This document shows, one piece after another, positions 10,459 through 52,133 of a stretch of 64,000 nucleotides of DNA. This DNA is from Eledone cirrhosa (lineage: Eukaryota): assembly GCA_964016885.1 (NCBI GenBank), contig OZ024742.1:258850001-258914000 (forward strand), read 5' to 3'. The stretch's first letter is position 1, and the number at the start of each line of letters is the position of its first letter. Made by a program: the position numbers and the translations under genes. The notes under the pieces were generated by a model. It was not told the origin of the DNA. It saw nothing but the letters and a program-made list of their open reading frames with translations, and did no database searches.

Positions 10459-10660
10459 ATAACGAAGGAGGTGTGGTAAATAACCAGATGGACCATAACG
10501 TACCACCAGAGTACTCGATACTTAGGGTAGTAGAGTGGGTAATAGGAAAATGTTAGACCCCGACGGCGGAGCTCAAGCCGTTTCGACGGCTATTTCTGGA
10601 GTCCCTAAATAGCCGTCGAAATGGCTTGAGCTCTGCCGTCGGGGTCTAACATTTTCCTAT
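10459..10660 (-). mobile_element. Family X hammerhead-associated short element, foldback copy
   Basis: Palindrome centred near 10600 plus tail; same family as 10961, 18961, 20525, 26216, 51882. Confidence 0.8.
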
Positions 10661-10960
10661 AAACGTATATATATATATATATATATATATATATATATAT
10701 ATATATATATATATAGAGAGAGAGAGAGAGAGAGAGAGAGAGAGAGAGAGATGGAAGCAAACAATTTATGGACCAAGATATTTGTTTCTCCGTTACGAGC
10801 CTCCTATTCTCCGCAGTAATCTCATTAATTCGTTGAAACTATTTGTATAGATAGATAAACAGATATATATATATATACATATATATATATATATATATAT
10901 ATATATATATATATATATATATATATATATATATATATATATATATATATATATATATAT

Positions 10961-11154
10961 AGGAGCGAGTAGGATCCCGACGGCTGAGCTCAAGCCGTTC
11001 CGACGGCTAATTCAGTCCAGAATTAGACGTCGAAACGGCTTGAGCTCAGCCGTCGGGGTCCTACTCGTTCCTATTACCCACTCTACTACCCTAAGTATTG
11101 AGTACTTTGGTGCGTTATGGACAATCTGGTTCCTTACCACATTTCCTTCGTTAT
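10961..11154 (+). mobile_element. Family X element, foldback copy
   Basis: Arms centred near 11012; GAAACGGCT tgagctc AGCCGTC GGGGT; tail ends ccttcgtta(ta)n. Confidence 0.8.
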
Positions 11155-11947
11155 ATATATATATATATATAAACACATATATATATATATATATATATAT
11201 ATATATATATATATATATATAGAGAGAGAGAGAGAGAGAGAGAGAGAGAGAGAGAGAGAGAGAGAGGGAGAGATAAACATATATATATATATATATATAT
11301 ATATATATATATATATAGAGAGAGAGAGAGAGAGAGAGAGAGAGAGAGAGAGAGAGAGAGAGAGAGAGAGAGAGAGAGAGAAATAGATACAGATAGAGAG
11401 TTAGATAAATGAAATATGTCATTGTCGTATTAGAAAGACGAGTTAGCTTCGTTAACACTCAGTGATACACGAATATATTTCATTGTTTCATAGTGGCTAT
11501 TAATTATTTGAGTTTTGAATGGCTGTGAAGAAAGAGAACAGACATTATATGAAACTCGCATTGCAAACTATTTATATATATATAAAGAATATTTAAACAA
11601 AATATTTATAAATATACAATATTTTTATCCAACAGAGATGTGTACTACTTCTGTGGTGGATCACAGCACGTATTGTTTTTGCTGAAATATCGTTTCCTGC
11701 CCTGTTAAAATAAAAATGATGTATTAAATATTATGTTCTGCTTTCGAACTTCAGTTGTTTATATGTAATAAGTGTGTACATACACATGAACATATTTCAT
11801 TGCTCCAAATATTGATATTGTTCATTAAGCATTTTAGTGTCATGCGAGTGGAATTTACTAGATGAACATTCCAATATATGTATGTGTGTATATATGTATA
11901 TATATATATATATATATATATATATATATATATATATATATATATAT

Positions 11948-12495
11948 AAAATAAAATAAATAAGTCAAATGTTTAAAATTTGGCTTCGTTTATTACTGCT
12001 ATATATATTTCGGTGACAGCCATCTTTGGCTGTGACCTCTTCAGGCAGTCCGAATTAGTGTGGTAGAGACGAGTACACATGTTGTTGAGGTGTATAACTT
12101 TGCCAATACTCTGATATGCCCAGTTCCTGGTTGGGTTGTTATTTCACTGAGGAACTGGAATCATATTTAGATTCCAGTTCCTCAGTGAAATAACAACCCA
12201 ACCAGGAACTGGGCATATCAGAGTATTGGCAAAGTTATACACCTCAACAACATGTGTACTCGTCTCTACCACACTAATTCGGACTGCCTGAAGAGGTCAC
12301 AGCCAAAGATGGCTGTCACCGAAATATATATAGCAGTAATAAACGAAGCCAAATTTTAAACATTTGACTTATTTATTTTATTTTATTTTATTTTATTTTA
12401 CATAACTCCGGAGTAACCAAACCAACCTGCGCACTTCGCCGAGTGCTCCAATCTGCATACTGAGGTTTTGGTAGTCAACACCAACATATACTCAA
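11948..12495 (+). mobile_element. Foldback element: ~215-bp arms (11948-12162 / 12170-12384), 7-nt spacer, 3' tail
   Basis: Arms appear perfectly complementary; hammerhead in each arm; flanked by (TA)n. Confidence 0.88.
12283..12337 (+). ncRNA. Type I minimal hammerhead ribozyme, intact core (mirror copy on minus strand ~11995-12049)
   Basis: ACTGC-CTGAAGA-GGTcACAGCC aaagat GGCTGTcACC-GAAAT ATAT ATA-GCAGT. Confidence 0.85.
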
Positions 12496-12647
12496 TATAT
12501 ATATATAAAGAATTGGTATATCTAACAACATATTTACACAGAAGTATACTTACGCTAGCAAGATATAGGTTTTGTAGTAACTTTGTGGTTCAATACAAAA
12601 ATGTAGAACAAGTATAAGAAATTATTTTACGTCTTTCATATATATAT

Positions 12648-12839
12648 ATGTGTGTGTGTGTGTGTGTGTGTGTGTGTGTGTGTGTGTGTGTGTGTGTGTG
12701 TGTGTGTGTGTGTGTGTGTGTGTGTGTGTGTGTGTGTGTGTGTGTGTGTGTGTGTGTGTGTGTGTGTGTGTGTGTGTGTGTGTGTGTGTGTGTGTGTGTG
12801 TGTGTGTGTGTGTGTGTGTCAGTGTGTGTGTGTGTGTGT
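12648..12839. repeat. Long (GT)n microsatellite (one of many AT/GT/GA tracts in the window)
   Basis: Direct inspection. Confidence 0.98.
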
Positions 12840-49148: not shown

Positions 49149-49727
49149 AATTAGTACATCTACCAACATATGTGTACAGATGTACACCCATGCTAGCAAA
49201 TATATATGTTATGTCTTAGCACCTTTGTGGTTCTATGCAGGGGGATGCAGAACAATTATATGAAAGACGTAAAATAAGAAAATTTTAAAAATTAAAAATC
49301 AACTTACTTACTAAAATGTTCACTCCATTTGTAGAGCAAAACTTCCCAAATTTTACTGCTGATTCAAGGTAGTAGTAGGCTCTTCTCATAATACGACCCC
49401 GCTGCTAACTGATTAACCTCAGTGTCACGTGATTGATTCTTTAGAATCTACCACTGACCAGAGGCAGTGAATTTTTTCAGTGCTCTGGAATTTAGTCCTC
49501 GCTAGCTTTATTCCATCCACTGAATTATTATTTTTATATGGGTTCCTAGTGTCCGCGCATCGCCTGGGAACTTAGCTGAGAATAGACTCCCTGATGACGT
49601 AAGGAATTCTCTATAGTTATATTACGTAACTATATTTATCCCCTTACAGAAACTAATTAGTTGGAGTGAAAATTTTAGTAAGTTTATTTTTAATTTTTAA
49701 AATGTTCTTATTTTACGTCTTTCATAT
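49149..49727. mobile_element. Family Y diverged copy: minus-strand tail segment (49149-49327) joined to a plus-strand body
   Basis: Alignable to 44377-45327; inverted tatgaaagacgtaaaataagaa / ttcttattttacgtctttcata. Confidence 0.8.
49586..49667 (+). ncRNA. Family Y hammerhead, second variant
   Basis: ACTCC-CTGATGA-cGTAAGG...CCTTACa-GAAAC TAATTA GTT-GGAGT. Confidence 0.82.
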
Positions 49728-49943
49728 ATATATAAATATGTGTGTGTGTCTGTGTATGTATGCACATATATATATGTTGTGTGTATGTATTTATGTATGT
49801 ATATATATATATATATATATAAATATATATGTGTGTGTGTATATATACATATATTTTTATGTGTATATTTATATATGTGTATATCTATATATGTGTATAT
49901 GTGATTTTATATGTATATATATATATATATATATGTATATGTG

Positions 49944-50143
49944 NNNNNNNNNNNNNNNNNNNNNNNNNNNNNNNNNNNNNNNNNNNNNNNNNNNNNNNNN
50001 NNNNNNNNNNNNNNNNNNNNNNNNNNNNNNNNNNNNNNNNNNNNNNNNNNNNNNNNNNNNNNNNNNNNNNNNNNNNNNNNNNNNNNNNNNNNNNNNNNNN
50101 NNNNNNNNNNNNNNNNNNNNNNNNNNNNNNNNNNNNNNNNNNN
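49944..50143. other. Assembly gap (200 N)
   Basis: Run of N. Confidence 0.99.
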
Positions 50144-51649
50144 CCTATTTTAATTGCAACTACATTGTGCAACCCTCTCTACGTGACAATATTTAGTCCG
50201 CCATTATAGCCATCAGATACTTCGACATAGTCAAAATGTGACTCTCTCGTCACCACACGTTAATAGCCAATTTCTCCCCACCTCTACAACTAGATTAGCT
50301 AAAAACAACAAGAAAATATTTCAATCATTAACACACACCATGACACCACAATTAATATCACTGTAAAACATCATAACTTCTACACAGCATTAATGCTGAG
50401 ACATACCACCATATCATAAATATGAGCACTACTATTAATATACATCACAACGCCCACAAGCTTTACCATTATATAACACCGCCATAGCACCAGTACTACT
50501 TCTAAGAAACTCTACAATTAATTGATAATAAAACACCATTAGCAATACGACTATGATACATCAGAAAACCGCCATCAATGTCATTATGACACATCACAAA
50601 ACCACCAGCACTACGAGTAAGACACAACATAACACCGACTTTAATAGCACAATTAGGACACATCACAGCACCAAATGAAACATCATCGCTAAGCATTAAT
50701 ACTAAGACACGCCACCAGATCATAAATATCAGCTCATGTAGAAGACACATCCAAACAATATAAGCAATGTGACTGAGACATATCATAACACTTTCAATTA
50801 TGACAAATAACGAACACCTATCGCAATACCAACTATTTAAACAAATCACAACACTAACTAGCATACCCAAAGGTGTCATCACAACACCGAATTCACAAGA
50901 TCTAAGACACATCATAATTGTCAGTATCAGCACAAACACTACGACACATAATATTATCCACGAGACAAACATTATATAGCCTTATAAAACACCTAAATTA
51001 TGACAACTTCAAAAACGACAAAGAAAACGACAACGAATCAACTACGATCCATCTACATATTCATTTCACAAGCTGGAAATAGCTGCTAAATCACCTCCAA
51101 ATCACAACTTAATGTGTTTGGAAAAAAAAAATGATTGGATGATGGAGTCGGTGAACATACACACATACACACATACACACGATTGACCAATCAAAGCCCA
51201 CCTTGGTCTAAAAAACAAGAGAACTAGAAAGCTACAAAGACAATAACAATAACAAAACCAAAAAGGACATCAATAATAATAATACCACCATTTTCACACT
51301 AACTAACAACATGAGCACAGGAAATACAAATTTAAATTTAACACTGATTGCACATTGTACTAAACAATAAGCTCACACGCACATGCACCATCATCACCAT
51401 CATCATCATCAGCGCCAGCAATAGGGCAGCATATACGCTTGTATGTAGGTGTGTATGTTAGTGTGCATTTACACACACACACACACACACACATATATAT
51501 ATATATATATATACACGCGCACATAAATATGTGTGTGTGTGTGCGTGTTTGATTGATACTCATTAACAATCCATTGAATTATATGCTATATGAACAAATA
51601 TATGATTCAATATAAAATGTGGTTATATATATATTTATATATATATATA

Positions 51650-51829
51650 TAGCTTGTTATAGTAAGAAACTGGTTACACCGTTTCTCCCCAGAGTACTCG
51701 ATACTTGGGGTAGAAGAGTATGGTTATATGAATGAATCAGGGCCCCAACGGCTGAGCACTTGCCGTTTCAACAGCTAGCTGGAACTAGCTGTTGAACCGG
51801 CAAGAGTTCACCCGTCGGGGTTCTGACTT
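51650..51829 (-). mobile_element. Family X relative, foldback centred in stem II
   Basis: ccagagtactcgatacttggggtag...ccccaacggctgagcacttgccgtttcaacagctag-ctggaa-ctagctgttgaaccggcaag. Confidence 0.65.
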
Positions 51830-51881
51830 ATATATATATATATATATATATATATATATATATATATATATATATATATAT

Positions 51882-52133
51882 ATAACGAAGGAAAAGTGGT
51901 AAGGAACCAGGTGGACCGTAACGCACCAAAGTACTCAATACTTAGGGTAGTAGAGTGGGTAATAGGAACAAGTAAGACCCCGACGTCTGAGCTCAAGCCG
52001 TTTCGACGGCTAATTCTGGACTATATATATATATATGGACTCTGAGCTCAAGCCGTTTCGACGGCTAATTCTGGACTATATATATATATATGGACTCTTA
52101 GCTCAAGCCGTTTCGACGGCTAATTCTGGACTA
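51882..52133 (-). mobile_element. Family X copy truncated in stem II, followed by two ~56-bp tandem reiterations of its end
   Basis: gctcaagccgtttcgacggctaattctggact(at)n three times. Confidence 0.8.

Follow-up and report, generated by a model that had tools for sequence, protein, structure and literature searches.

Head-to-head stubs of a Penelope-like retroelement in Eledone cirrhosa share a termination zone in helix II of a hammerhead-like fold

The 64,000-nt stretch of Eledone cirrhosa contig OZ024742.1 between positions 258,850,001 and 258,914,000 (hereafter the window, meaning this stretch at its full length) carries several copies of a short repeat, 'family X', which corresponds to the 3'-terminal ~140 nt of a Penelope-like retroelement (PLE) of ~3.1 kb inserted in (TA)n. 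In the window and throughout the genome, many copies of this 3' end are stubs, in which an inverted arm stands head to head with a sense arm. Both arms mostly end within one narrow zone, located in the helix II tip of a hammerhead-like fold, and this termination zone is common to three families of the element (A, B and C). Stub formation is recurrent and does not reflect the spread of one master copy. We consider it likely that two target-primed complementary DNAs (cDNAs) come to a halt at the foot of the helix II apical hairpin, after which they are joined head to head.

Anatomy of the stubs

Positions within the element are given on a natural copy (L037:7545-9911), in which AGTCCAG begins at nt 2229 and the unique 3' end is nt 2367. 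Every oriented stub reads, in order, (TA)n-TAGGAA, inverted arm, centre, sense arm, tail and (TA)n, and the total length of most insertions is only ~195 nt. In 43 of 46 main-class stubs and in 15 of 15 stubs of a second class centred on nt 2270 (see below), the inverted arm has its start at nt 2289 (±1), and the same outer end is found in inverted arms of 250-280 nt (window 27059-27334; loci L087 and L130). None of the inverted arms among the oriented stubs enters the last 78 nt of the element, so that this 78-nt 'tail' (nt 2290-2367) is present at one end only. (TA)n directly precedes TAGGAA in 39 of the 46 main-class stubs, and among the 15 loci fetched for the second class L214 is the only one without (TA)n on its left side.

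The inner ends of the arms differ between stubs. With junction calls that rest on short exact matching, the 46 oriented stubs show at least 25 different centres, with 0-7 filler nt between the arms. The inverted arm ends at nt 2229-2230 in 20 stubs and at 2233-2236 in 17, and the sense arm starts at 2232-2233 in 16, at 2229 in eight and at 2235 in seven; the inverted arm reaches further toward the 5' end in 22 of the 46 junctions, the sense arm in 15, and the two are equal in nine. Private variants are common to both arms of one stub, as at L218. The median arm-to-arm identity over 42 nt is 97.6%, with perfect arms in 12 of 46 stubs, figures that are inflated because 11 of the 42 nt in each arm are fixed by the search pattern.

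Two side observations concern this anatomy. The 78-nt tail (e.g., window 19022-19099) is the best conserved part of the element across families A, B and C, the regions upstream of it having diverged to less than 70% identity, and may be the site that the reverse transcriptase (RT) recognises. Additionally, at L045 (G000:C2:129668176-129671530, ~1290-1475) there is an upstream inverted copy with the full 3' end including the tail; its end, at about nt 2213, lies ~16 nt past the hot zone and is fused to coding sequence of a forward copy, an arm type that differs from that of the stubs.

Genome-wide distribution of arm ends

The original prediction, made from the letters of the window, held that five family X copies stop at one point in the 3' strand of helix II, and that three of these and a relative at 51650 turn back there into a palindrome. 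BLAST of window 26230-27340 against the window, which recovers five short copies besides the long copy and its inverted partner, bears this out: the short copies and the relative have the 3' end of the element in common and stop at nt 2229-2239, and inverted arms are read at three of the short copies and at the relative. All six short copies begin within a few nucleotides of AGTCCAG, four of them with an upstream inverted arm.

The genome-wide breakpoint count that the prediction had called for gives the same picture. A random sample of 119 stretches of 10 kb (1.19 Mb) from the four largest contigs was mapped on the reference, yielding 40 sense arms that reach the 3' end. Seventeen of them begin at nt 2224-2243, six at 2250-2265, three exactly at 2270, five at 2276-2295 and two at 2315-2317; a further six are long and one is cut by the stretch edge. 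Three sampled arms are not independent because they lie within larger inverted duplications, and dropping them leaves 15 hot-zone starts among 37. Whole-genome counts of exact 20-mers, with both strands summed and reversed-pattern controls of 0 each, place the drop between 56,664 arms reaching nt 2236 and 14,594 reaching nt 2226 (Table 1), i.e., ~74% of the arms that reach 2236 end before 2226. Palindromes of the form GACGGCTAWTT-N0-30-AAWTAGCCGTC, counted like the other patterns by exact matches only, occur 17,670 times with their centres in the zone (control 0). Family C has a different helix II (GTTCGGATCTAGCTGTC before GAAAC), and in ~24 of 28 loci it turns back 17-25 nt upstream of GAAAC, a distance equal to that in the other families; a long copy showing the native helix II of family C was not found among these 28 loci.

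As a separate observation, inverted duplications on the kilobase scale (84-98% identity) often hold stubs, as at L053 (82-1094 with 4524-5534), L140 (2491-3419 with 4381-5320) and L155 (6035-8607), so that neighbouring stubs are not always independent events.

A hammerhead-like fold at the termination zone

An RNAalifold consensus of ten long copies from several sub-lineages gives one common three-way junction. Helix I is formed by ACCCC/GGGGU and extended by GGAAG/UUUCC, helix II by CGGCUAUUU/AAAUAGCCG plus an apical hairpin, and helix III by ACGGC/GCCGU with the loop UUGAGCUCU. Across the 32 pairs, 94.3% of alignment cells pair, as against 31-53% when the partners are slid. The G10.1-C11.1 pair closing helix II is G-C in nine copies and a compensated U-A in the tenth; next to it, family B has an A10.2-U11.2 pair and family A a U.U. 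The 3' half of the core is canonical (C11.1-GAA-A15.1 ... U16.1-C17), and C2269, the H17 position, is unpaired in the fold (p 0.20). The 5' core strand reads YUGANAA in 13 of 13 long copies examined and not the canonical C3 U4 G5 A6 N7 G8 A9: A8 is constant, N7 may be A, G, U or C, and position 3 is U in 11 copies and C in two.

Scans with the Rfam hammerhead models were negative throughout: over the window at gathering score, over 26200-27400 with the cutoff relaxed to E<=10, and over 39 kb of long copies at E<=1. The canonical core CTGANGA is absent from either strand of 2.4 kb. PLE hammerheads with U3-A8 covariation, including those of Cercyon elements, are on record, and so are PLE hammerheads whose long helix II has a bulged nucleotide at its 5' end or whose loop 3 is palindromic (Cervera and de la Peña, 2014, PMC4209133, in the portion available here). 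Judged by its sequence and predicted structure, the fold is a U3-A8 variant of the PLE-type hammerhead, with catalysis predicted only. Since this variant is described by Cervera and de la Peña (2014), the 'hammerhead' of the original prediction corresponds to a known PLE-type variant. The prediction had placed a full ribozyme at two places in the window, and this stands in part: the copies that continue beyond the breakpoint and retain the 5' half of the motif are limited to 26218-27065 and its partner arm 27059-27334, but the core is the non-canonical YUGANAA, and the motif of the partner arm is degenerate (core UUGACAG, with mismatches in helix II).

In the fold, the 3' strand of the helix II apical hairpin is made up of nt 2226-2232, with pairing p 0.87-1.0. 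The next two nucleotides (2233-2234) are unpaired, and the lower stem takes in 2236-2244; an enzyme copying the template would thus meet a 3-nt internal loop and then the apical hairpin. The latter has seven pairs, four of them A-U, and the lower stem has nine. An alternative hammerhead cutting at GUC 2230-2232 was also considered, and a by-eye search found no matching core.

A second class of stubs at the predicted cut site

Fold-backs between nt 2258 and 2273 (AGTAWGAC-N0-30-GTCWTACT) occur 945 times genome-wide, with 92 for the control. The tighter pattern AGTAWGACCCC-N0-2-GGGGTCWTACT is found at 184 sites (control 0), in which both arms end exactly at G2270, the first nucleotide after the predicted cut C2269^G2270. 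Among 50 such palindromes listed, 28 are perfect and loop-less, 17 contain one filler nucleotide (A or T in 14) and five contain two, and all 15 of the loci fetched show the full stub anatomy. Family B accounts for 46 of the 50 listed cut-site stubs and for 33 of 50 listed main-class stubs (Fisher p = 0.0026). Another group of fold-backs, ~14 of 50 listed, turns back within the inverted repeat of helix III.

An RNA 5' end left by self-cleavage would explain the sharpness at nt 2270. If so, these run-off stubs would be a genomic fossil record of a U3-A8 PLE hammerhead cutting in vivo, with the cut RNA still serving as template. It is possible, if rather doubtful, that the hammerhead fold is a working part of PLE integration as a whole, in which its base sets where copying from the second target strand starts, the tip of helix II stops both cDNAs, and ~1% of stubs are run-off copies of self-cut RNA.

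One cut-site-type stub (L214, G000:C1:146436345-146439367, ~1460-1640) has flanks (..GGTGATGATGA / CATCATCAACG..) that are mutually inverted, as if it stood at the centre of an older palindrome.

Proposed mechanism and alternative explanations

In the route that we favour, one nicked target strand would prime on the (UA)n-tailed 3' end of the RNA, and the other at UAU 2288-2290, immediately 3' of the pairs that close helix I. Both RTs would copy toward the 5' end of the RNA and would mostly terminate at nt 2229-2236, and one cDNA would then switch to the other at its 3' end, adding 0-7 filler nt and giving an inverted arm from 2289 to x followed by a sense arm from y to 2367. The second class, ~1% of stubs, would stem from cDNAs running off RNA that the hammerhead had previously cleaved at C2269^G2270. 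The cDNAs that start at nt 2367 and at nt 2289, 78 nt from each other, come to an end within one common 8-nt zone, which places the cause in the template and not in the distance travelled; to this extent the original proposal that a template feature sets the palindrome centres is supported.

Several points weigh against this route. Covariation in the fold is thin, with only two of 32 pairs changing on both sides among the ten long copies. Every step of the route (stalling, priming at two places, template jump) is deduced from DNA scars. The apical hairpin is weak, which argues against a plain thermodynamic stall, and the stronger lower stem of helix II has no comparable hot spot, contrary to what such a stall would predict. 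Many of the ends (2229-2230) lie three to four pairs inside the apical hairpin and not before it. The cut-site class could equally reflect a pause at the base of helix III. Finally, small deletions at the centre after insertion could add to the diversity of junctions.

Seen from the DNA, a pause at the hairpin looks the same as a physical end of the RNA. A second explanation, which we regard as unlikely, retains the same two-cDNA integration but takes the hot zone to be made of physical 5' ends of template RNAs at which the cDNAs run off, such ends being produced by nuclease cuts in apical helix II or in the loop of hairpin RNAs from older stubs. It accounts as well for two cDNAs ending in one zone despite starts 78 nt apart, it is in line with the unpaired internal loop within the zone and with the run-off plus filler pattern seen at 2270, and it does not need the weak apical hairpin to act as a roadblock. 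However, the ends are spread over ~8 nt and are unequal between the arms, unlike the sharp 2270 class, and about a quarter of the arms read through, so that the cut would have to be partial.

The shape of the stubs could instead be inherited and not made anew, if one or a few masters of a truncated hairpin element multiplied as a non-autonomous parasite of PLE enzymes, an idea related to the truncated master copy that the original prediction had offered as an alternative. That a single shape is present in so many copies (17,670 exact-pattern sites) and that sub-lineage variants recur in many stubs fits this idea, as does the proposal, in the accessible part of a preprint, that animal retrozymes are non-autonomous PLE derivatives (Li et al., 2026). 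The phylogeny that the prediction had named as a check speaks otherwise. On a poorly resolved tree of 74 arms over 122 nt (51 hot-zone, 19 long and four other arms, with the 34 family-A long copies from the first searches thinned at random to 12), the truncated label changes 17 times, as compared to 20.0 for shuffled labels. The approximately unbiased (AU) test, run on 50 truncated and 19 long copies with the long-branched window relative left aside, rejects a single truncated clade (p = 0.00018, lnL difference 82.3); the truncated copies are polyphyletic and mixed with long ones. Moreover, 13 stubs of one sub-lineage (GGAACCAGTAAGAC..GACAGC) have 11 different centres, and the same sub-lineage includes long copies (L122 and L162). 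The outer site 2289 is also used with fold-backs at 2250-2287 and with the arms of 250-280 nt. Inheritance from a master as the main cause of the stubs is thus improbable.

A cDNA that stalls at helix II, folds back and primes itself, as the original prediction had suggested, would also centre palindromes at one place, and some centres do resemble small hairpin loops, such as TGGACT in five of 46 copies. Yet such a snap-back of the 3'-end-primed cDNA predicts a sense arm at least as long as the inverted arm, whereas the inverted arm reaches further in nearly half of the junctions; it leaves the fixed outer end 2289 unexplained, with two other UAU sites in the tail unused; and the zero-loop perfect palindromes at the cut site (28 of the 50 listed) cannot form within one molecule. 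We therefore hold self-priming to be quite improbable, and from its misfit with arm lengths, the fixed 2289 start and loop-less palindromes we infer a twin-priming-like reaction. Lastly, long palindromes are unstable, and large inverted duplications are common around the loci, but decay at the DNA level, whereby longer palindromes would lose their centres during replication down to a stable size, is very improbable, given that plain truncations without an inverted arm end at the same place (window 18958; L110), that the breakpoint is common to three families of different sequence, that filler nucleotides at the centres point to joining and not deletion, and that the stubs with perfect arms (12 of 46 over 42 nt, 11 of them pattern-fixed) are apparently young and already short.

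Identity of the element

The Eledone cirrhosa genome (3.0 Gb) was searched with window 26230-26600, giving 4,581 first-look candidates and 40 scored copies with 93-95% identity. Aligned copies have a common 3' end, ..CCTTTGTT(TA)n, also written ..CCACAATTCCTTTGTT before (TA)n, beyond which the DNA is unrelated, and their 5' end points vary (~890, 1,200, 1,560, 1,720, 1,840, 2,400 nt and more). A fixed 3' end combined with varying 5' ends identifies a 5'-truncating retroelement whose 3' end is 'family X'. Upstream partial copies indicate that one unit of the element measures ~3.1 kb. A transcription start at about nt 2229 inside the upstream pseudo-long terminal repeat (pseudo-LTR) was considered and rejected, the upstream partial copies of full-length units beginning at nt 2006, 2070 and 2106.

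Open reading frames (ORFs) of the better copies contain HSDKT(E/G)N, YRDDGL, CNCPDRSTC (CxCX5C) and VIYQCNV..AYIGLT..FKTRLYQH; the DKT motif reads HSDKTEN or HSDKTGN in the ORFs of L047 and L044, the latter also having RLRWRT, and the endonuclease region is flanked by CNLCSEE (CxxC) and CKH (CxH). A protein search returned 796 relatives at E<=1e-5, mostly of ~700 aa on contigs of 2.3-3 kb. Twenty aligned homologues keep RMRWK, DKT, RLINP.K, FD...FYPSI, GLYRDDGL and CNCx5CP, together with the GIY-YIG region (IY..V...YIGLT..FK.RY..H, C.LC..EK and C.H), and the nearest protein-atlas clusters carry HTH_animal, RVT_1 and GIY-YIG. Written out on the alignment, the conserved stretches include RMRWKaff, aDKt.N.Y, CNCr.k..CP, iY.A.V..YiGLt..FK.Ry..H and CrH. 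Pfam finds 0 families in the ORFs of the element copies, leaving RT and GIY-YIG unrecognised, and among the 20 homologues it detects GIY-YIG in one, weakly (E = 0.0057). A PDB profile search gave 0 matches.

The sections of Craig et al. (2021, PMC8557442) available here list as traits of Hydra-clade PLEs RWK, DKT replacing DKG, a CxCX5C linker and (TA)n insertion, as well as CxxC and CxH around the conserved E and N of GIY-YIG. Since the motif set in the ORFs and homologues matches this list, the element is filed with the Hydra clade, its features pointing there by motifs and not by an RT tree.

Copies in the window

The 18-mer motif AGTCCAGAAATAGCCGTC occurs ten times in the window at <=3 mismatches, as against 0.02 expected, and 0 of 100 shuffles reach ten. 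The copies are compiled in Table 1. A short copy is a ~140-nt unit between (TA)n flanks, and an inverted arm of ~55-60 nt directly adjoins the unit in three main-family copies (10461, 10959/11008 and 20527) and in the relative. The relative, with a BLAST-matched span of 51657-51777, turns back at the homologous place despite its different sequence (CAGCTAGCTGG aa CTAGCTG).

Table 1. Copies of the element in the window and genome-wide counts of arms by exact 20-mer. Positions are those of the window unless marked ref (reference copy).
Feature	Position	Strand	Description
Stub 1 sense arm	10461..10600	-	ref 2231-2367, last 137 nt including the 78-nt tail; (TA)n beyond the 3' end
Stub 1 inverted arm	10602..10660	+	ref 2231-2289; outer end ..TTCCTA adjoins TA-rich DNA
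Stub 2 inverted arm	10959..11013	-	ref 2235-2289
Stub 2 sense arm	11008..11152	+	AGTCCAG (ref 2229) to the 3' end
Stub 3	18958..19099	+	plain 5' truncation at ref 2229; without inverted arm
Stub 4 sense arm	20527..20671	-	ref 2229-2367
Stub 4 inverted arm	20667..20720	+	ref 2236-2289
Long 5'-truncated copy	26218..27065	-	ref 1516-2367; non-coding 3' region only
Hammerhead-like three-way junction	26299..26424	-	helices I, II and III, core UUGACAA; in the long copy
Predicted ribozyme cut in the long copy	between 26320 and 26319	-	
Inverted arm of the long copy	27059..27334	+	ref 2016-2289; same outer site 2289
Diverged relative (~72% identity)	51651..51829	-	sense arm ~51651-51783 (-); inverted arm ~51786-51829
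Stub 6 sense arm	51884..52022	-	begins at AGTCCAG (ref 2229); without inverted arm
Two further partial copies	52037..52132	-	ref ~2229-2263, each followed by (TA)6-7; 55-nt tandem period
Arms counted by exact 20-mer	ref 2246-2265		63,853
Arms counted by exact 20-mer	ref 2236-2255		56,664
Arms counted by exact 20-mer	ref 2226-2245		14,594
Arms counted by exact 20-mer	ref 2193-2212		4,191, an undercount because the 20-mer there is less conserved

In window 51990-52147, ref 2229-2263 (~35 nt) followed by (TA)6-7 is found three times with a 55-nt period, AGTCCAG opening each unit; this tandem could stem from repeated template switching at the hot spot or from later slippage. An assembly gap of 200 N (49944-50143) lies within the studied range. 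Large inverted repeats are also present (16489-17167 with 18154-18836; 44495-44877 with 44950-45332; 55114-55486 with 57096-57892), with arms of 300-390 nt that are 77-98% complementary (77 to 89% for the last set). BLAST gave no match between these repeats and the PLE, and at least two of them adjoin TA or CA microsatellites. The repeats may belong to further families that insert in a similar manner.

Implications

The integration route of PLEs and the purpose of their hammerheads are unsettled questions, and the available text of Craig et al. (2021, PMC8557442) states that an in vitro system is needed to explain tandem and inverted structures and the microsatellite bias. In the Eledone cirrhosa genome, insertions of one family have left tens of thousands of integration scars that can be read to the nucleotide. 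These scars lead to sharp predictions: internal priming should occur at one fixed site, 2-3 nt 3' of helix I; both cDNAs should terminate in a common zone at the helix II tip; and a minor class should end exactly at the predicted cut. If these hold, a ribozyme fold would be structurally involved in reverse transcription, and cleavage in vivo would be documented.

The stubs (~195 bp, at least 17,670 copies) are also a large source of short palindromes in (TA)n tracts, which can upset assembly and can pass for microRNA hairpins. Sub-threshold matches to Rfam microRNA precursors were observed at L037 3793-3912 and L051 6707-6938 (at most 77.6 bits, against a gathering score of 101). They arise from (TA)n-centred palindromes and back-to-back element tails, and microRNA calls on such palindromes in such genomes are likely false.

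Comparison with known systems

In the twin priming that Ostertag and Kazazian reportedly described in 2001 for LINE-1 (L1), the second nicked strand primes internally and two cDNAs are joined, leaving an inverted segment. Internal priming on the second strand, two joined cDNAs and an inverted segment beside a sense segment would also characterise the route proposed for the stubs. The two differ in geometry: the internal primer of L1 lies upstream of the stop of the first cDNA and gives rise to an inversion, whereas here it would lie downstream (nt 2289), so that one RNA stretch serves as template for both cDNAs and yields a palindrome. Moreover, the internal priming site is variable in L1 and fixed in these stubs. 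L1 copies of the '5'-inverted' kind are on record in the consulted part of PMC2912911.

Closer to the element, PLE insertions have, on their upstream side, a 5'-truncated copy in inverted orientation, and just one of their ends bears a 'tail' of 30-40 bp, as stated in the available sections of Craig et al. (2021, PMC8557442). The stubs agree with this general architecture in their inverted arm beside a sense copy and in their one-sided extension (here nt 2290-2367), and depart from it in the 78-nt length of the tail, in a total length of mostly ~195 nt and in inner ends piled up in a zone of 8-10 nt, of which those sections make no mention. As far as the same sections go, Hydra-clade PLEs and this element also have in common a short single ORF with DKT, RWK and CxCX5C, a motif-level GIY-YIG with CxxC/CxH, (TA)n insertion and strong 5' truncation. 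Unlike the Hydra elements, which are given there as 'generally <3 kb' with canonical hammerheads, this one has a unit of ~3.1 kb and a YUGANAA core (A8) that matches no Rfam model.

Similar to the PLE pseudo-LTR hammerheads treated in the accessible part of PMC4209133, the fold has a type I layout, U3-A8 in place of C3-G8, a retained G10.1-C11.1, an extra or bulged 5' nucleotide in a long helix II and a palindromic loop 3 (GAGCUC). It differs from them in that helix III is a stable 5-bp stem and not 1-2 bp, helix II has a 34-nt apical extension, and C3 occurs with A8 in some sub-lineages. The animal non-LTR retrozymes of Li, Clavereau and Pollet (2026 preprint, in the part available) resemble the stubs as hammerhead-bearing non-coding sequences related to PLE pseudo-LTRs, whereas the stubs are not in tandem, are without the 5' half of the ribozyme and are apparently dead by-products.

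Judged by titles and the openings of abstracts, a literature search on PLEs with twin priming or template jumping turned up no paper on such PLE integration. Already in print are the element type, (TA)n targeting, 5' truncation, the inverted upstream arm, the one-sided tail and the U3-A8 variant; what is added here is the quantification of a termination zone, common to both arms and to three families, at the helix II tip, the test that rejects a single master and the class of stubs at the predicted cut.

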